Shown one piece after another: positions 22,509 to 53,277 of a stretch of DNA of 64,000 nt. The translations under genes and the position numbers were made by a program. Source of the stretch: Escherichia phage vB_EcoM_RZ; sequence record MW598459; one strand, 5' to 3'. The first letter of the stretch is position 1. The number at the start of each line of letters is the position of its first letter. A model generated the notes under the pieces. That model did not search any database, was not told the origin of the DNA, and saw only the letters and a program-made list of their open reading frames with translations.

Positions 22509-22812
22509 ATTTGTGTTTACAATGTCTGCATTTGTAACGAAGAGTACTAGTCTGCCAATGGACTAACTGGACCTGTTCAGTTCCGCATTCTGGACAGTTT
22601 GGAACACGCTTAGAAGCACGTTCCCGACGGCGAACCATAGTCATTACCATATCCCAATCAGTAACCTGACTATAATCGCCACAGCCATGAATCTTTCCCA
22701 ACTGCACAAGGTCAGCATCAATAAATTTTAAAAGACCTTTATTAACCCCCGCAGCGGGGGTCCATTCTGGAAATGCAGTTTCTGCAATATCTTCAGCTAA
22801 ACGTTGTTTCAT
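22480..22812 (-). CDS. Hypothetical zinc-ribbon protein (110 aa)
   Basis: Track ORF; CPECG...C.HCKHKF Cys pairs. Confidence 0.4.
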
Positions 22813-23840
22813 TTCAGCAGCTCCAGAGCCTGTTCCAGTTTATCCAGACGATTAGTTGATTCTTCCCAAAGTCGCTTGGCTTTGGTATAGTCTTCAGTTG
22901 CCTTTTTATTAATAGCAAGAGCTTCATTATACGCTGTTTCCAGGGCAACAATTTCAGGCGCTTTTTGTTTCACTGGCTCATTATTCAGATTATCAATCAG
23001 GTCTTCAAGGGTGGTAACTTCATGCGGAGCATTCATAATTTCCTCACTTTTCTTTTTATAAATTTCTGCATCAGTTGGTTGTTTTGCGCATTTAACTTCA
23101 CGCAATGTCACCACAATTTTCCAACCTTTCCAACCATGAGTACTGGTGATAGGGTCTACTTTAATTTTTTCAACAGTACGCATATAATTAAGGGCACACT
23201 GCATCTGTGAAGTAAGCGTGCTCGCGACATCAAGATACTTTTTGACATTTTCTGGAGTAGCTACCGGCGTAAAGAATTCATACTTAACTGTAATAATTAC
23301 CTGGTTTTCACCAGACTCTTTAACATTTATCATGTGCTCAGCCAAATGGGAAATAGTGCGATAATCGCTACCCATCAATTTTGTCGCTGATTTGATGATA
23401 GACATTTTGTTATCTCTGAATTCACGAGCCCAGCAATTTGCGAATTCAGAAACAGTATAGCCTTGTTTATCAAGGTAGTATTTTTCAACATCACCAAACC
23501 AATGATATCCAATTGTACCTTTACCATGTCTGGATTCAACGCCAAACTTATTAAGAAGGTCTTTATTAACCAGGTATGCCAGGACTCGGGAACCTTTAAA
23601 AGTTTTCTTGATATCATCTTTACCTGCACGACTCGCAATAGTCGCGATGTCTTTTTCAAAGCGACCAGATGCAACAATAGTCGAATCAATCTGATTTAAC
23701 CAGGAATTGATAATCGAAAGGATAGCCGATTCACCTGTTAATGGTTTTACTTTTGCATCGATAGTGGTGTTAAAGGCCCGGATATATTCGTTACGTGTCA
23801 TAGTGTTCTCCTCATAAAGTAGGAATTCATTATACTCCAT
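22809..23840 (-). CDS. Hypothetical protein (343 aa) with C-terminal coiled coil
   Basis: Track ORF. Confidence 0.5.
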   Translation of the reverse strand: MEYNEFLLYEENTMTRNEYIRAFNTTIDAKVKPLTGESAILSIINSWLNQIDSTIVASGRFEKDIATIASRAGKDDIKKTFKGSRVLAYLVNKDLLNKFGVESRHGKGTIGYHWFGDVEKYYLDKQGYTVSEFANCWAREFRDNKMSIIKSATKLMGSDYRTISHLAEHMINVKESGENQVIITVKYEFFTPVATPENVKKYLDVASTLTSQMQCALNYMRTVEKIKVDPITSTHGWKGWKIVVTLREVKCAKQPTDAEIYKKKSEEIMNAPHEVTTLEDLIDNLNNEPVKQKAPEIVALETAYNEALAINKKATEDYTKAKRLWEESTNRLDKLEQALELLK

Positions 23841-23859
23841 CCATCCCTGGAAGTAAACA

Positions 23860-24795
23860 TTATTTTAATGCTTTGATTGCCGCTTGCAATTTATTGCGTT
23901 GTTTTTCCATATTCTTGATGCGATTCAGAACATCCTGGATACCCTTTTTCTCATCTTCAATCAGACCATTTAAGCGGTTAACTGATTCCCGGATAGCATC
24001 AGCATGATAGCTCTCAATAGGCTTCATTGGTGGGTTAAAGATTTCAAGAGAGCTGTTTGGCTGGATTTTCCATTGATACATATTTTTAACTTCCAGTGGT
24101 GAAATTTTAGTCTGGTCGTAAGATTTAAACTGACCTGCAAATGCTGGGCCATATGATGCGGTAGGGATACGTTCCATTTCTGGTTCCTTTTTATCTTCTG
24201 GTTCATTTTTCTCTTGATAAGGAGCATAAGATAAAAGATATTCTTTAGTCAATTTAATATCAATGGCTATAGTTTTGAGGAATTTTTCCGTTTGGTGGAT
24301 ATAATTTGTATCTTCATCAAACGTGTACGATTCAACAGCATGGCGCATATAAAACAGCGCAATACCCATAACCTCTTTAAAGTTATGACAAAGAGCAACA
24401 TCGCCCTTGGTAGTTGGTTTGAACTTAATCTGTACACCATCATTCTTAATATTGATAATCAAGTTGTCAGAGTTAAAATTATAGTTCTTGATGTTAACCG
24501 GAGCTTTGCGAATACGAAATCCGCCGGCCAGAATTTCCTTGATACTCTTACGAACCGTGGCACCAAACAAAAACGCTGGGCGACGGCAGTAATCATTCAG
24601 AGAGTTAATTCTTACAATACGTTGACCATACCCCTGGGTAGCAGAACCTGATTTGATTTTGCCAAAGTTAACCAAAGAATTCATTGCGATAAGACGAGTC
24701 ACACGACCGTCATGTGGTTCATAACTACTAGCGTATTCTTTACGTGTTTTAATTTTCATATCATAGTCCAAATAATTTTTCATAGAATTTAGCAA
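23860..24795 (-). CDS. Hypothetical protein (311 aa) with C-terminal coiled coil
   Basis: Track ORF. Confidence 0.5.
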   Translation of the reverse strand: MLNSMKNYLDYDMKIKTRKEYASSYEPHDGRVTRLIAMNSLVNFGKIKSGSATQGYGQRIVRINSLNDYCRRPAFLFGATVRKSIKEILAGGFRIRKAPVNIKNYNFNSDNLIINIKNDGVQIKFKPTTKGDVALCHNFKEVMGIALFYMRHAVESYTFDEDTNYIHQTEKFLKTIAIDIKLTKEYLLSYAPYQEKNEPEDKKEPEMERIPTASYGPAFAGQFKSYDQTKISPLEVKNMYQWKIQPNSSLEIFNPPMKPIESYHADAIRESVNRLNGLIEDEKKGIQDVLNRIKNMEKQRNKLQAAIKALK

Positions 24796-24976
24796 TAGGC
24801 CAACACACCATCATAATTGCCAAAACAAACCAAAGCAGAGGCCATACTAGTGTAATGAATACTGCATCATAGCTTGATTCAATTTCGATTGGATTCCAAT
24901 CACCCGATTTATGAATGATAATGGTCGTCATGAATCCTAGCACAAAGTAAAGGAGAATAAAACCTACAATTTCCAT
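24761..24976 (-). CDS. Hypothetical membrane protein (71 aa, two TM)
   Basis: Track ORF. Confidence 0.4.
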   Translation of the reverse strand: MEIVGFILLYFVLGFMTTIIIHKSGDWNPIEIESSYDAVFITLVWPLLWFVLAIMMVCWPIAKFYEKLFGL

Positions 24977-25060
24977 ATTAACCTACAATATTTGAGAATA
25001 TCAGCCACAGAATACCTGTGGCAACGATTGCATAACCAAGAACAGCAAGCCATTCCATAA

Positions 25061-25909
25061 TTAATCCTTAAGCAATTCAATAACGTTCATCAGTTTCTGA
25101 CGTTCGGCTTTCGCTGCGCTATTCAGTCCTGACAGACGGAAAATTTCATCATCTTGCTGCTGGATGGTGATGTTAAGCTCTTCAATCTGTTTAGTGAAAA
25201 GCTCAATTTGCTCTGAATATTTTTCATTGCTTCGCACTGGAACAGGTTCCATTTTAGGAGCTTGTTCAATGGGGCTCTCGACTTCAACTTGGTCTTTAAT
25301 TTGACATAGTTTAATACGCTGGACGCCTCCAGTTTTAACATCATAAAAGGTAAGAATGCCGTGACATTCCAGTACAGACAATGCCAAACGAAGATGGAAT
25401 TTCCAATTATCATATTGACATCCACTAAAAGAAGAAATACTGTATTCACCTTCTTTTTGACCTTTAATAACATTAAATAGTTTATAATCTAAAGAATTAT
25501 TGGTTTTAAAGGTCATTTGTTTATCTTGACCGCTTGCTAAACGAGCGCCTAATGCCAATAAACGGCGCTGGTTTTTCCAAAGGTCTTTAACCACTTCATC
25601 AAACGTCATGGTGCTAATCGCACGACCATAAAGGTCATAGCCTTTATTATAATTTTTAAGTAGAATTTTGGCATTAGCACGAGACAACATACCTGAACGA
25701 TGAAGAGATTTCATGACTCGGTCTTCTAATGTAAGAAGACCAGTGGTCTTTTCAAAGATTTTAGTGAATTCAGCGGAATTAGTACAAACATTGAACTTAT
25801 TCCACATCATATATAAAACATTTAAAACCACATCTTTAGTGCTTGGAATACTGTTAAATTTAACAACTTTTTTAACTTCAGAACGAATTTCATTAATTGC
25901 TTGTGACAT
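25061..25909 (-). CDS. Hypothetical protein (282 aa) with C-terminal coiled coil
   Basis: Track ORF. Confidence 0.5.
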   Translation of the reverse strand: MSQAINEIRSEVKKVVKFNSIPSTKDVVLNVLYMMWNKFNVCTNSAEFTKIFEKTTGLLTLEDRVMKSLHRSGMLSRANAKILLKNYNKGYDLYGRAISTMTFDEVVKDLWKNQRRLLALGARLASGQDKQMTFKTNNSLDYKLFNVIKGQKEGEYSISSFSGCQYDNWKFHLRLALSVLECHGILTFYDVKTGGVQRIKLCQIKDQVEVESPIEQAPKMEPVPVRSNEKYSEQIELFTKQIEELNITIQQQDDEIFRLSGLNSAAKAERQKLMNVIELLKD

Positions 25910-25972
25910 AATAATTTCCTCAATAGATTAATCAAAGGTCAGAACCATTATACCATCCTTGGTATAAAGCGT

Positions 25973-26497
25973 TTATGCGAGAACCGTCTTTAAACGCTCT
26001 TCAAACTTCTGAAGGAGTACCTGGCGCTCTGCTCTTTGTTTGGTATAGGTTTCAATACGCTCTGAAGTGAGATTGTATTGTTCATTAACTGATTCCCGCA
26101 TGAATTCAGGAATCTCTTTACATGCTTTGATTTCATTGAACTTATCAAGCACCGCTTGTTGTTCAGCAATCAGACCATCATAATATTGGATATCTGATTT
26201 GATGTTTTGTACATCAGATTCAGTAGGCATATTTTTCTTTGCTCTTGTCGCCTGATACTCAGCATTAGTCTCTCTTGACCAGAACAAGGAGCGGTTTTTA
26301 TTGGTGTTTTTATACACATCAACAATACCAACTGAATCAACAGTCACAATCCAGTTCCAGGTGTTTTTATAAGTTTGACCACCTGATACTGTAATCTCAC
26401 CAGCACAAGCAACATCATTAAAGAACTTGCTTTGTGCTTCTGATTTAAAATTACCATTATTGTAATTAATCAGATTAAAGATTGATTTGGCTTCCAT
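25973..26497 (-). CDS. Hypothetical protein (174 aa)
   Basis: Track ORF with early promoter upstream. Confidence 0.5.
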   Translation of the reverse strand: MEAKSIFNLINYNNGNFKSEAQSKFFNDVACAGEITVSGGQTYKNTWNWIVTVDSVGIVDVYKNTNKNRSLFWSRETNAEYQATRAKKNMPTESDVQNIKSDIQYYDGLIAEQQAVLDKFNEIKACKEIPEFMRESVNEQYNLTSERIETYTKQRAERQVLLQKFEERLKTVLA

Positions 26498-27198: not shown

Positions 27199-27945
27199 AT
27201 GATTTTATCCGGAAGAACTGTTGATGAACTCAATGAAAAAGTCCAGGCTGCCTTGGCTGATAATTGGTATTTGTTTGGTTCTACTATGGTGTTGCCGAAT
27301 ACCCCTACAGATAGCAAAGAGCGTTTTTTCCAAACTATGTCCAGCTCGGAAACTCAGATACCGGGTCCGCTTGGTCCCAAAGGAGAACCGGGTGTACCCG
27401 GACCAAAAGGAGACCCAGGTGGGGATGGAAAATCTTCTTATCAGATATGGCTTGACTTGGGAAATACAGGAACTGTTGATGATTTTTTAACTGATACAGC
27501 AGGAAAGAGGGAAAAATCCGAGGTGTTTTGGAGTGGTATAAACGTTCTATTAACTAATGGTACGACTTCAAACATAATTAGTGTTTTAAAGGGGATTCCA
27601 CCGACTGCAGGGACTCTATCTCCGTTTTTTAGAACCACTGATGATAAGTTGTGGCCATATAACCAAGACAGAAGCCTAATGTTTAAACTCAACCTTATTG
27701 GTAATTTTGCAGGAGCCTCGCAAGCTCGAAGTATAACATTAAATTTCGTTGGAACCAACGGAAACACTTATATACAGAATCGTCCGGAAAATGCTACAGA
27801 TATTTTGTCTTTTACAACGTTCTTTAGCATTGATAAAGATGGGGCAATGGCAACCAATGGTACAGCTATAACTGTTATGCCAAATGGCGGCAACTTTACA
27901 ATAACCTCCGCATTGTTAGTAGCCGAACAAACAGTGACTTCATAA
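27199..27945 (+). CDS. Collagen-like repeat protein (248 aa), hypothetical; only plus-strand gene in a minus-strand region
   Basis: Track ORF; AAGGAG RBS 7 nt upstream of ATG; seven Gly-X-Y triplets; Asn/Thr/Gly-rich C-terminal half. Confidence 0.6.
   Translation: MILSGRTVDELNEKVQAALADNWYLFGSTMVLPNTPTDSKERFFQTMSSSETQIPGPLGPKGEPGVPGPKGDPGGDGKSSYQIWLDLGNTGTVDDFLTDTAGKREKSEVFWSGINVLLTNGTTSNIISVLKGIPPTAGTLSPFFRTTDDKLWPYNQDRSLMFKLNLIGNFAGASQARSITLNFVGTNGNTYIQNRPENATDILSFTTFFSIDKDGAMATNGTAITVMPNGGNFTITSALLVAEQTVTS
27364..27429 (+). repeat. Gly-X-Y collagen-like triplet run (GPLGPKGEPGVPGPKGDPGGDG)
   Basis: Seen directly in the translation of ORF 27199..27945. Confidence 0.8.
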
Positions 27946-38893: not shown

Positions 38894-39116
38894 GTTTCCA
38901 TGATTGGTTAAAAATATCGCTCATTAAAAATTCAAGTCTATTTTCCAATGAAGGGCTTTCACTACTAGAAACTTGAACCATGTAGTCAGCAATAGGTCGG
39001 AACATATCCAAGTCAGTTTCTAAATCATCTTTGATTTTCTCTTCTGATGTACCTGTATCATAGGAATACAGATAAGAATCGCATGACTCAGATTTAATAT
39101 AAATTGCAATACTCAT
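38880..39116 (-). CDS. Hypothetical acidic protein (78 aa)
   Basis: Track ORF. Confidence 0.4.
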   Translation of the reverse strand: MSIAIYIKSESCDSYLYSYDTGTSEEKIKDDLETDLDMFRPIADYMVQVSSSESPSLENRLEFLMSDIFNQSWKRDDE

Positions 39117-39700
39117 TTACGACATTCCTCAATAAAGGAGTTCAATGTATTTTTCTTAGTGATATCGTCATATACCTTTTTAACTTTAGAAATACGAAAA
39201 GGTACTTCAATAACCATAGTCCATAAAAATGATGCAATAAGCCCAGCGAGAGCAGTAGAAAAGCACGCACCCATTACAGCTACGGGTGCTTCATTTTTGC
39301 CTGTCAAGAAAAACCACAGGAATGGTAAAAATAAGATTCCAGCCCAGGCATAAAACCTGGAACAAATTAACTTATCAAATTCATCACTCCAGGTACGAAA
39401 TCCATATTTCTTGCTATAAGAAATTAATGGGTCGGGTGTCTGTTCTTTGAGCGGTTCTGGTTGATGCCCATTAATGATGTATCCCATTTTATATTCCTTA
39501 ATTAAAAGCTCTTTCACATGACGATTGCATCGCGACCAATCAACGTTTTCCACCTTGATTCCTTCATCACCATCATCAAGGTTCGCCCAATATTTTTTGG
39601 TAATCATAAATTCGTCTCTTGATACAATTATACCTGTATTTTCTGCCCGGCGGATGAAGTTTACATCAACACCCATGCAGCCAGTTTCATAAAGGGCCAT
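39113..39700 (-). CDS. Hypothetical membrane protein (195 aa) with C-terminal FIEEC motif
   Basis: Track ORF; C-terminal TM pair then ..NSFIEECRK. Confidence 0.45.
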   Translation of the reverse strand: MALYETGCMGVDVNFIRRAENTGIIVSRDEFMITKKYWANLDDGDEGIKVENVDWSRCNRHVKELLIKEYKMGYIINGHQPEPLKEQTPDPLISYSKKYGFRTWSDEFDKLICSRFYAWAGILFLPFLWFFLTGKNEAPVAVMGACFSTALAGLIASFLWTMVIEVPFRISKVKKVYDDITKKNTLNSFIEECRK

Positions 39701-42458: not shown

Positions 42459-42749
42459 TTAGCACATTGCCGAAGAGGAGACCCAAGCACCAACTGTAAC
42501 GACACCGTTTTCAACTTCACCGCCGTTGTTTTCAATTTCATCTTTAAACCACTGGGAGCATTCATAACCGACAGGATAATATGTACGGCCTGAACCATAA
42601 TCACCGGTACCGAATTGGATACCATATTCATCTGCGATTTCTTCGCAGTGTTTTTCAATTTCAGAGGTCTTATTTAGAAGAGAATAGATGGCTTTTTCTG
42701 CAGATTTCTCATCATAATACTTGGGGATAGCAATTTCAATTTTATTCAT
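42459..42749 (-). CDS. Small protein, paralog family member (C-terminus ..AWVSSSAMC)
   Basis: Track ORF. Confidence 0.45.
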   Translation of the reverse strand: MNKIEIAIPKYYDEKSAEKAIYSLLNKTSEIEKHCEEIADEYGIQFGTGDYGSGRTYYPVGYECSQWFKDEIENNGGEVENGVVTVGAWVSSSAMC

Positions 42750-43099
42750 GATTTACATTCCTTAATAAAGGTTTCAAGGTCATTACGTTTTGTTTTGTCT
42801 AGGAACTTATTATACTCAGCCATTGCCGAAGCATATCTCTTACGGCTAGGAGCATTCACTGCATTTGTGTGACAGATATCATAAACAACCGGGATAAAAT
42901 AAGCCACAACAGCCGGAGCAATTATCATAAAGAAGCCCATCTCAATAGGCATGACTCCCTCGATTGCAGCCATAACCGTGGTCATTACCAGACCAACCAA
43001 ACCACCGAGCATACCGGTGACAATTCCCAATAATAAATTGCCGCCAATATCATATTCAGCCAATTGATAAACATGTGATGCAAGACTAGGCCGTTCCAT
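42746..43099 (-). CDS. Hypothetical membrane protein with C-terminal FIKEC motif
   Basis: Track ORF 42746..43192 trimmed to internal ATG at 43099 adjacent to the upstream stop; several TM helices. Confidence 0.4.
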   Translation of the reverse strand: MERPSLASHVYQLAEYDIGGNLLLGIVTGMLGGLVGLVMTTVMAAIEGVMPIEMGFFMIIAPAVVAYFIPVVYDICHTNAVNAPSRKRYASAMAEYNKFLDKTKRNDLETFIKECKS

Positions 43100-51727: not shown

Positions 51728-52561
51728 TTATGAATTTCTCCATACTTTCTGTGAAGAAAATCTTTTGCCTTTTGAAAAAAACTGCTGAAGGGGGAGTAAT
51801 ACCACATTTGCCCAGTCACTGGGCTTGATTTCAGTAATAGTACCTTTTATATTGCCAGGTATATATGCTTTAATCATCTGGTCAGCCCCTTTAAATCCCT
51901 TCACCTTTGACCAATCAATCTTCAGATGAGTCTTGTTCGTAATCGTAGGAGTATTAGCATATTGCTTAAGAAGTTCCTCAAGGAACTCTTGACGTGCCTT
52001 CGGTGGAATATAGTGCAAGTTCAAACCATACATCAAATTGTGCTTACCTAGCCCAAGATAAATGATTAACGGATATTTGTCCCAGTACGGAAGAGTATCC
52101 TTATGCTTTGCATCATAGATATAAGCATAAATCTTACCCGGTTGAGGTTTAGCCGTTACGTGGCCACGAACTGATTTCTTAATTGTCTCAGCGAACCATC
52201 TGGCAGATTTGGTGTTGCTTGCTGCGCCTTCGTTAGCAATCTTATCTCTTATGCTCTTTCTAAAGCTATTCACCATTATCAGCTGGCGTTCAGCCTTCGT
52301 AAGTTTACCGGCGGGTTTCTTTTTGAGCTTGGATACTTTATAAGCAGTCTGAATTCTCGAATGATATCTTGACATGCTTTTGGTAAAGGTCGAATAGTTG
52401 ATTCCTTTCTCTTCAGCAAACTTCTTCGAGGTCATTCCCTTTTCTTTTGCTGTATAAAATTCAACCCCTATTTCAACCCATTGTTGTTCGGATTTACTGG
52501 GTTTTGGACCTGGTTTATCTACAGATTCATTGATAAATGTAAAAATACTCATCCTTTCCAT
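51728..52561 (-). CDS. 2: DNA end protector gp2-like (277 aa; alternative ATG at 52552)
   Basis: Track ORF; basic protein of T4 gp2 size in syntenic position. Confidence 0.7.
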
Positions 52562-53277
52562 CCTTCTATAAAATTAATCAAATCATTTTTTAAATAGTAT
52601 GGTAAGGTTTCTGTATAGCCATCGACCATAATATCTTTATTCAAATAACCTCTGTCTTTTATATATAATACAGATATTGCGGATTCTAACATTTTGGCTT
52701 GTGCACCCAGTTCAAATTCTCGATAATATAATTTGGAACTAATGCATTTGGAAAAATGATTTTGCTGCCACAATCTAAAATCATGATTGGAAGTTATACC
52801 ATACTTTAAAGCAGTTCCGCCCGGATATTCTATTTTATTAACATAAACAATAGCAGGTTTCTTTGCGTTAAATCCTTTGTGACAACAGTTTGGACATCCT
52901 TTGTTTTTTGTTGTAAAGTTGTTTAGATTTGTAATCCAACTGGTTGAACATGTAGAACACTTTATATAGGCTTTTGATTTTGTAAAAGTTGAATATGTGG
53001 TATCCCATTTATCAAAACTATACAATGGATTCACGGAATTTATTCTTGTGATTGCATCTAATTCAGATATTAATTTGCTTTCACCATAAGAACGTTTTAA
53101 ATTACAATTAGAACACCAACTTTTTGTTTTTAACTTATGCTTTAAAACAGTTGCTTTGTATTTGCATGTTTCTTCACATATAAAGCACTTTACAAATATC
53201 AAAGTTTTTGATTTATTAAAATCGCCTTGTCCCACTATCTCGCCATTTGTGATGTTAAAATCTGAACAATCGTACAT
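52549..53277 (-). CDS. Cys-rich hypothetical protein (242 aa), possible GIY-YIG-like nuclease with N-terminal zinc fingers
   Basis: Track ORF; CxxC pairs CFICEETC...CSNCN and CSTCS...CPNCCH; C-terminal IVYVNKIEY...KYGITSN...R...E; lies between genes 4 and 2. Confidence 0.4.

Follow-up and report, generated by a model that had tools for sequence, protein, structure and literature searches.

Do the three large genes beside nrdC in Escherichia phage vB_EcoM_RZ encode unrelated proteins that share a C-terminal tail, or are they diverged copies of one gene? We addressed this question in a 64,000-nucleotide (nt) stretch of the genome (record MW598459; the window below means this whole stretch), which belongs to a T4-like phage of the Gaprivervirus/Dhakavirus type in the family Straboviridae. 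The three open reading frames (ORFs) lie on the minus strand at the coordinates given in the initial annotation, and every gene of this segment has the same orientation, with nrdD, endonuclease VII, and nrdC immediately upstream. The surrounding 4.2 kilobases (kb) share 93–95% identity with Escherichia phages MN01, DK-13, and VR25; for Shigella phage SP18, a Gaprivervirus, the figure is 89%. On balance, we consider the genes to be tandem, very diverged paralogues of one accessory family confined to T4-like phages (Straboviridae), in which putative counter-defence bodies are joined to a coiled-coil tail. The family would comprise NrdC.3, NrdC.4, NrdC.5, and NrdC.6 of T4, and NrdC.4, an NrdC.5-like DUF7235 protein, and NrdC.6 of the window.

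The gene starts were set through homologue alignments and ribosome-binding sites. The length of 282 amino acids (aa) first reported for the NrdC.6 homologue stands, but those of 343 and 311 aa were corrected to 330 and 299 aa, respectively. The 343-aa ORF begins 13 codons too early; the NrdC.4 start is ATG 23801 (MTRNEY), with GAGGAG 7 nt upstream. The NrdC.5-like protein starts at ATG 24759 (MKIKTR), 1 nt past the stop of an upstream 71-aa ORF. The coding sequences (CDS) and their parts are as follows, with the confidence of the AlphaFold2 (AF2) models given as the predicted local distance difference test (pLDDT).

22809..23801, minus strand: NrdC.4 homologue CDS, 330 aa plus stop (phrog_1435; homologues of 330 aa; GAGGAG upstream; AF2 pLDDT 81)
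22812..22958, minus strand: NrdC.4 C-terminal tail, residues 282-330, a single long helix of seven heptads (AF2 helix 282-329)
22959..23102, minus strand: NrdC.4 linker, residues 234-281, Pro/charged, indel-rich, and of low confidence (AF2 pLDDT, family alignment)
23860..24759, minus strand: NrdC.5-like CDS (Pfam DUF7235), 299 aa from MKIKTR (PF23882; T4 NrdC.5 homology)
23863..24033, minus strand: NrdC.5-like tail, ~57 residues, an NPxMKPIExYHAD cap and then a heptad helix ending ..KQRNKLQAAIKALK
24034..24213, minus strand: NrdC.5-like linker, rich in indels and more variable than any other segment (alignment columns 200-290, mean identity 0.46)
25061..25909, minus strand: NrdC.6 homologue CDS, 282 aa (phrog_2257; AF2 pLDDT 79)
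25064..25237, minus strand: NrdC.6 tail, residues 225-282, a PVPVRSNEK cap and then a heptad helix ending ..AERQKLMNVIELLKD
25238..25300, minus strand: NrdC.6 linker, residues 204-224, disordered in the model (pLDDT <50 at 207-228; identity 0.43)

By profile match and synteny, the genes are members of known T4 families, one of them related to a proven anti-Dsr1 gene. The 330-aa protein matched phrog_1435 (E = 1.8e-141, positions 1-334 of 334). Its SP18 counterpart is annotated nrdC.4, and the gene adjoins nrdC.2, a synteny kept with SP18 and T4. Its membership in PF26897 ('Phage_T4_Y04OP') was assigned by proxy via its homologues, 60 of 60 of which carry this domain; to judge from its name, PF26897 seems to hold more than one T4 protein. 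DUF7235 (PF23882) matched the 311-aa ORF with 426.7 bits (E = 7.6e-128, model positions 1-307 of 307; gathering score 30 bits). The encoded protein is 27% identical to T4 NrdC.5 over ~300 aa (BLASTP E = 5e-25), the T4 NrdC.5 family aligned with DUF7235 over 254 columns (hhalign E = 4.6e-21), and a tblastn search with T4 NrdC.5 detected genes of this type in phages of the Gapriver/Dhaka type, reaching E = 2e-18 in UPEC01, a near-identical phage. The 282-aa protein matched phrog_2257 (E = 2.5e-121, positions 1-303 of 303). PF26899 was present in 104 of 104 of its homologue clusters, several of them named NrdC.6, and the syntenic position of nrdC.6 before nrdC.8 holds. Many T4-like genomes in GenBank label the homologues of NrdC.3, NrdC.4, NrdC.5, and NrdC.6 'thioredoxin', apparently carried over from the name of the neighboring nrdC; homologues of these four proteins gave no thioredoxin match.

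The C-terminal tails were compared across five families (NrdC.3, NrdC.4, T4 NrdC.5, DUF7235, and NrdC.6); T4 carries four such genes consecutively (NrdC.3, NrdC.4, NrdC.5, and NrdC.6). In the three window proteins, the tail spans ~50 residues, or about seven heptads, and closes with the motif L-x-x-[AV]-[IL]-x-x-L-[KN], which was also found in T4 NrdC.3, NrdC.4, and NrdC.5. The AF2 model of NrdC.6 folds the tail into two helices (232-262 and 264-281). Heptad scores over the last ~50 residues were above same-protein shuffles for each of the three proteins, being 0.72-0.82 vs. 0.52-0.60 (NrdC.4: 0.82 vs. 0.60; NrdC.6: 0.78 vs. 0.55; p about 0.01-0.03). The family alignment of DUF7235 showed that the NrdC.5-like tail is almost invariant in IQDVLNRIKNME.QR.KL.AA..ALK.

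Pairwise BLASTP of the tails was not significant (best E = 0.51). Two hydrophobic seam positions, 71-100% hydrophobic, kept a common phase from the C-terminus over 49 residues in 5/5 families. Ungapped profiles of the last 14 residues, anchored at the C-terminus, scored positively in all 10 of the 10 family pairs (13.8-30). The anchored scores exceeded those obtained at offsets of 7 and 14 residues, which served as the control for generic coiled-coil periodicity (column-shuffle p<=0.013 each). When a position-specific scoring matrix (PSSM) was built from four families, the omitted family scored 11.6-23.6 bits, as compared with a 99th percentile of 2.4-5.5 bits for the C-termini of 195 other window ORFs. 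The similar charged heptad-repeat tails described at the outset were thus borne out, and their similarity exceeds generic coiled-coil composition, which the initial annotation had named as the result that would refute it. The ends of the three genes use different codons (CTGGAGCTGCTGAAA, ATCAAAGCATTAAAA, and ATTGAATTGCTTAAG), and the likeness of the tails is at the protein level only. The shared C-terminal heptad module is homologous, and no other part of the three proteins is as constrained.

The bodies gave no match in pairwise BLASTP between the three proteins, and only at this level does the earlier description of unrelated N-terminal domains hold; profile and structure comparisons gave distant homology. 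With hhalign, NrdC.3 aligned with NrdC.4 at E = 7e-13, NrdC.4 with NrdC.5 at E = 9e-4, and NrdC.4 with NrdC.6 at E = 3e-3 over 189 columns. The merged NrdC.3/4 profile aligned with the merged NrdC.5/DUF7235 profile at E = 4.5e-5 (probability 69%), through 233 colinear columns reaching the last residue. The NrdC.6 alignments with the other families consistently paired the same motifs, namely SRLLSxLV with GxLSRxNA, IlKsAxKLxxGD with RRLLALGARLAxGxD, and the AL..M..VE helix with HLRLALSxLE. When 1.84 billion proteins were searched with the NrdC.4 profile (hmmsearch), only 7 matched, NrdC.3 among them at E = 1.3e-7, and no new distant members came to light. Most families also share an N-terminal M-(K)-T-R-x-E-Y start. 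This MKTRxEY start is like the T4 capsid-targeting sequence (MKTYQEFIAE), but the L/I-x-E cleavage context is absent, and the resemblance was set aside.

The AF2 models of NrdC.6 (pLDDT 79) and NrdC.4 (pLDDT 81) have the same element order: about six helices, a small beta wing, two helices, a beta-beta-alpha-beta-beta unit, a low-confidence linker, and a long helix. The layout predicted to be common to all family members has a helical domain carrying a small beta wing at the N-terminus, followed by the beta-beta-alpha-beta-beta domain, a flexible Pro/charge-rich linker, and an amphipathic seven-heptad helix of ~50 residues. The NrdC.4 linker has pLDDT <50 at 237-242, 259-265, and 271-280, and its length varies in the family alignment. 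Searched against BFVD, the NrdC.4 model matched an NrdC.6-family protein of Sf25 (E = 1.5e-4). The NrdC.4 and NrdC.6 models both matched, at full length, proteins of fHyAci03 (1.7e-8 and 7.5e-8) and PM2 (7.6e-7 and 1.9e-8), among others; these shared intermediates are 300-335-aa proteins of other T4-like phages. The BFVD matches also included Acj61p120 and Acj61p121, which are encoded in tandem close downstream of nrdC in Acinetobacter phage Acj61 and end in similar helices (..TLNKALEIMML and ..ILAKALVV..). The Acj61 homologues gave no link by sequence (E>=0.008) and were joined by structure and synteny only. Their position by nrdC suggests that the family is old within Straboviridae and keeps its genomic place. 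A PDB sequence search with the three family profiles returned noise only, NCBIfam gave no match, and PADLOC gave a noise-level Cmr5 match only.

As judged from the profile alignments, the colinear homology is strong for NrdC.3-NrdC.4 and NrdC.5-DUF7235, and good between NrdC.3/4 and NrdC.5/DUF7235; for NrdC.6 the support is structural. Contrary to the initial model of a module fused to variable effector domains, the proteins are colinear across the families from the N-terminus to the last residue, probably including NrdC.6. The colinear profiles, the common element order, and the BFVD cross-matches point to duplication of the whole gene, after which the body diverged fast and the tail slowly, rather than to domain shuffling. 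Two points are apparently new: that these families belong together, and that a frozen tail contrasts with a racing body. Pfam and PHROGs keep the families apart, with PF26897 as the probable exception.

This contrast was quantified within families and between genera. Mean pairwise identities in the tail, body, and linker were 0.72, 0.52, and 0.55 for the NrdC.4 family, 0.78, 0.67, and 0.46 for DUF7235, and 0.74, 0.60, and 0.43 for NrdC.6. Conservation is highest in the tail throughout and lowest in the linker, apart from NrdC.4, where the linker and body values are close. Between genera, nonsynonymous divergence (pN) in the tail (0.13-0.17) was one half to one third of that in the body (0.35-0.40), with synonymous divergence (pS) saturated in both (0.5-0.9). 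For NrdC.4, the pN was 0.09-0.13 in the tail vs. 0.40-0.52 in the body (pS about 0.5); for the NrdC.5-like gene, 0.17 vs. 0.35 (pS saturated); and for NrdC.6 against Tequatrovirus, 0.14 vs. 0.39. The extreme case was a metagenomic NrdC.4-like gene (contig L020), in which identity was 26% in the body (pN 0.52) and 84% in the tail (pN 0.09, pS 0.50). Purifying selection at the protein level is two to five times as strong in the tail as in the body. The low tail pN together with the diverged pS indicates selection on the protein rather than recent module exchange or a DNA signal. A mosaic exception was found in NrdC.6, where two tail variants, ..KLMNVIELLKD and ..KYIDILNLLKD, do not track the body.

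Related phages frequently have these genes broken or deleted, and the genes are expendable. In SP18, the DUF7235/NrdC.5-like gene is annotated as two CDS of 125 and 170 aa (L001:4919-5823) and is probably broken. In vB_EcoM_ACG-C40 (L017:4802-5213), a deletion that takes out all of nrdC.4 has fused the 5' end of nrdC.5, annotated with 71 codons, to the end of nrdC.3 that encodes the tail; recombination between paralogues may account for it. The T4 reference NrdC.6 (275 aa; L002:12067-12894) ends in ..QIEELIFLFNNMMMKFSDYLD, as compared with ..QIEELNISIQQYDDEIFRLSGLSSKAKSEREKLIKIVDLLKS in other Tequatroviruses, its tail being lost through a frame change or a sequencing error. In vB_EcoM_005, NrdC.4 (L014:6941-7909) has an in-frame deletion inside the tail with the terminal motif kept, and ~36 internal residues are missing from the DUF7235 copy. 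Contig L020 (SRR23924977_88013) carries at 188-439 an intact 83-aa ORF consisting of an NrdC.5-type linker end and the tail only (..IKPVEQYHSDELKKSL...KAKLIAAIESLK). Without a body, and placed directly after the counterpart of the 71-aa membrane ORF, it is a remnant or else a tail protein in its own right.

With respect to function, the uncharacterised early gene nrdC.5 of T4, when expressed from a plasmid, allows a T4 deletion mutant to plate again on E. coli with dsr1, a SIR2-domain NADase defence gene from ECOR17 (Srikant, Guegler and Laub, eLife 2022; PMC9391042). A literature search on the function of nrdC.3, nrdC.4, nrdC.5, and nrdC.6 found nothing beyond this report. A counter-defence role is likely for the window genes by analogy with the anti-Dsr1 result and from the arms-race evolution and the architecture. 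The proteins would act as early or middle accessory factors, whose fast-evolving body would bind a target in the host; for the NrdC.5 lineage at least, this would be a defence protein. Oligomerization or targeting, as first suggested for the tail, would be a reasonable function. The conserved tail would assemble a predicted coiled-coil oligomer, either homo-oligomeric or mixed between paralogues, and oligomerization would provide avidity against oligomeric targets.

NrdC.5 is a proven Dsr1 antagonist, and if the family is one, its other members become candidate counter-defence factors. The products of T4 nrdC.3 to nrdC.6 have been 'hypothetical proteins' for decades, split among database families; NrdC.3, NrdC.4, NrdC.6, and the DUF7235 proteins would now be concrete candidates for such a role. 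The combination of a racing body and a frozen tail is also useful as a mark by which families of this kind could be sought in other phages.

Several findings weigh against the one-family, counter-defence reading. The sole member with a tested function, T4 NrdC.5, is 27% identical to the window protein. By sequence, NrdC.6 is weakly linked to the other families (hhalign E = 0.003-0.07), and including the AF2 secondary structure brought no gain for NrdC.4 vs. NrdC.6 (E = 0.03 -> 0.09). The family profiles are shallow, with an effective number of sequences (Neff) of about 2, and the Foldseek template modeling scores (TM-scores) are low (0.3-0.5) because the models are multi-domain and flexible. 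With TM-scores in this range, the membership of NrdC.6, which rests mainly on structure models, is probable rather than proven. Finally, the solvent-facing heptad positions of the tail are also conserved, which fits partner docking at least as well as self-association.

Docking is a minority possibility that deserves serious weight. Here, the tail would be a helix by which all the paralogues dock on a common partner that evolves slowly, either a host hub protein or another protein of the phage, and each would carry its own body there. The majority fraction at heptad positions b, c, and f is 0.66-0.90, and the end motif stands at a constant distance from the free C-terminus in all families. The tail is extremely constrained while the body drifts to 26% identity, and the L020 tail-only ORF is kept as an intact reading frame. 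However, a hydrophobic seam of the a/d type that runs regularly through seven heptads is typical of a self-associating coiled coil. Docking and self-association are not mutually exclusive roles, and the conservation of the outward-facing positions leaves room both for docking on a common partner and for co-assembly of the paralogues. The latter leads to a speculative extension that we regard as improbable: paralogues of the same phage may co-assemble via their tails in a mixed bundle, or dock on a common hub, to form a multi-headed counter-defence complex. It is suggested by tails equal in length, heptad phase, and end motif, and by the conserved outward positions. If true, each fast-evolving head would neutralize its own immune protein of the host, which for NrdC.5 would be Dsr1, and a tail-only protein such as the 83-aa ORF of L020 could be a regulator or a cap.

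Comparable weight, still well short of an even chance, goes to the proposal that the proteins serve another early function, such as nucleic-acid binding or regulation via the N-terminal domain, the effect of NrdC.5 on Dsr1 being lineage-specific. A single member has a tested phenotype, and the window homologue is distant from it. The N-terminal domain has a helix-plus-beta-wing appearance, and basic motifs of NrdC.6 (NQRRLLALGARLA and NYNKGYDLYGR) are strongly conserved across genera. Against this, Pfam, NCBIfam, and PDB gave no match to a DNA-binding family, and fast body divergence, frequent loss or pseudogenization, and tandem amplification form an arms-race pattern.

Domain shuffling, in which a mobile coiled-coil module was fused to unrelated effector domains as the initial annotation proposed, is unlikely. 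It would agree with the blank BLASTP comparison of the bodies, with their separate families in PHROGs and Pfam, with tails much better conserved than bodies, and with the tail-only ORF of L020. It is opposed by the body-to-tail colinear alignments between families, the common order of secondary-structure elements, the structural cross-matches that join the families, and the start shared by most of them. Moreover, the synonymous sites of the tail have diverged as much as those of the body, so there is no sign of a recent tail transfer. Least credible by far is an origin of the tail likeness in chance, generic coiled-coil composition, or a DNA signal (promoter or translational coupling at gene ends): the tail BLASTP was not significant, compositional likeness is general among coiled coils, and LLK can be encoded by TTGCTTAAA, which resembles the T4 MotA box, but the heptad-shift and column-shuffle controls, the shared phase, the leave-one-family-out PSSM, and the low tail pN speak against it, and the differing codons with the saturated tail synonymous sites rule out a MotA-box or promoter cause of the ..LLK ending.

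The surroundings of the three genes contain further features. The following lie in the same cluster or elsewhere in the window; the last three, which are different minus-strand ORFs, share a mutually similar end motif.

24761..24976, minus strand: 71-aa predicted membrane ORF between the NrdC.6 and NrdC.5-like genes (phrog_7899, E = 2e-31)
25973..26497, minus strand: NrdC.8 homologue, 174 aa, with a helical C-terminal half (phrog_2274)
42746-43099, minus strand: end-motif ORF, 117 aa (phrog_2330), ending ..NDLETFIKECKS
39113-39700, minus strand: end-motif ORF, 195 aa (phrog_2203 'membrane protein'), ending ..NTLNSFIEECRK
52549-53277, minus strand: end-motif ORF, 242 aa (phrog_681 'endonuclease')

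From its sequence and position, the 71-aa ORF is placed outside the NrdC.3-6 family and is predicted to be translationally coupled to the NrdC.5-like gene; metagenomic contig L020 has the same arrangement. NrdC.8 was considered as a fourth family member and rejected (hhalign E>=0.06 against all families; heptad score p = 0.21 vs. shuffles), the sole structural lead being a weak Foldseek match to a 175-aa KPV15 protein. Two promoter-like sites were seen on the minus strand. The site upstream of nrdC.6 (25940-25975) consists of ACGCTTTA, 12 nt, and TATAAT and resembles a T4 middle (MotA-box) promoter, and the site upstream of nrdC.4 (23829-23857) reads TTTACT-17-TATAAT. A hydrophobic mini-ORF of 26 codons (MEWLAVLGYAIVATGILWLIFSNIVG; 24979-25059, minus strand) lies between the nrdC.6 stop and the 71-aa ORF and overlaps the nrdC.6 stop region. 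Further along, between nrdC.9 and nrdC.11, a 248-aa ORF (27199-27945, plus strand) runs opposite to all its neighbors. It combines a short collagen-like G-x-y run with an Sf6-type tail needle knob domain (PF16532, E = 2.6e-32) and is an unexpected structural-type gene; SP18 has no annotation at the matching place.

The closest known system is the T4 locus itself. The 330-aa window protein is orthologous to T4 NrdC.4, with ~52% identity to Tequatrovirus NrdC.4 and the same tail ending. T4 also has NrdC.3 (PF26897), which matches the body of the window NrdC.4 at E = 7e-6; the window phage is without an NrdC.3 copy, and its nrdC.2 comes directly after nrdC.4. The 282-aa orthologue of T4 NrdC.6 (PF26899) is 47-50% identical to the Tequatrovirus copies and 70% identical to those of Dhakavirus, and unlike the T4 reference, where a frame change or a sequencing error removed the tail, the window copy retains it. 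T4 NrdC.5 and the NrdC.5-like protein occupy the same place between nrdC.4 and nrdC.6 and have the same NPxxKP[IV]ExxHAD cap and tail, ending ..KQRxKLxxAxxAL[KN]. They differ in that the N-terminal region of T4 NrdC.5 is ~35 residues longer, and T4 NrdC.5 falls in a different PHROG family and was unmatched in the Pfam DUF7235 search of the window protein's relatives. A second comparison is with DSAD1, an SPbeta-type phage inhibitor that, according to the abstracts of the reports, binds DSR2 directly (PMC10973363, PMC10981675, PMC11087589). These abstracts do not claim a C-terminal coiled coil for DSAD1. It comes from another phage group and targets DSR2 rather than Dsr1, and the two are likened by description, not by sequence or structure. 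The likeness is functional only: as summarized there, DSAD1 is a phage protein neutralizing a SIR2-domain NADase defence, as the NrdC.5 lineage would be, possibly also through direct binding.

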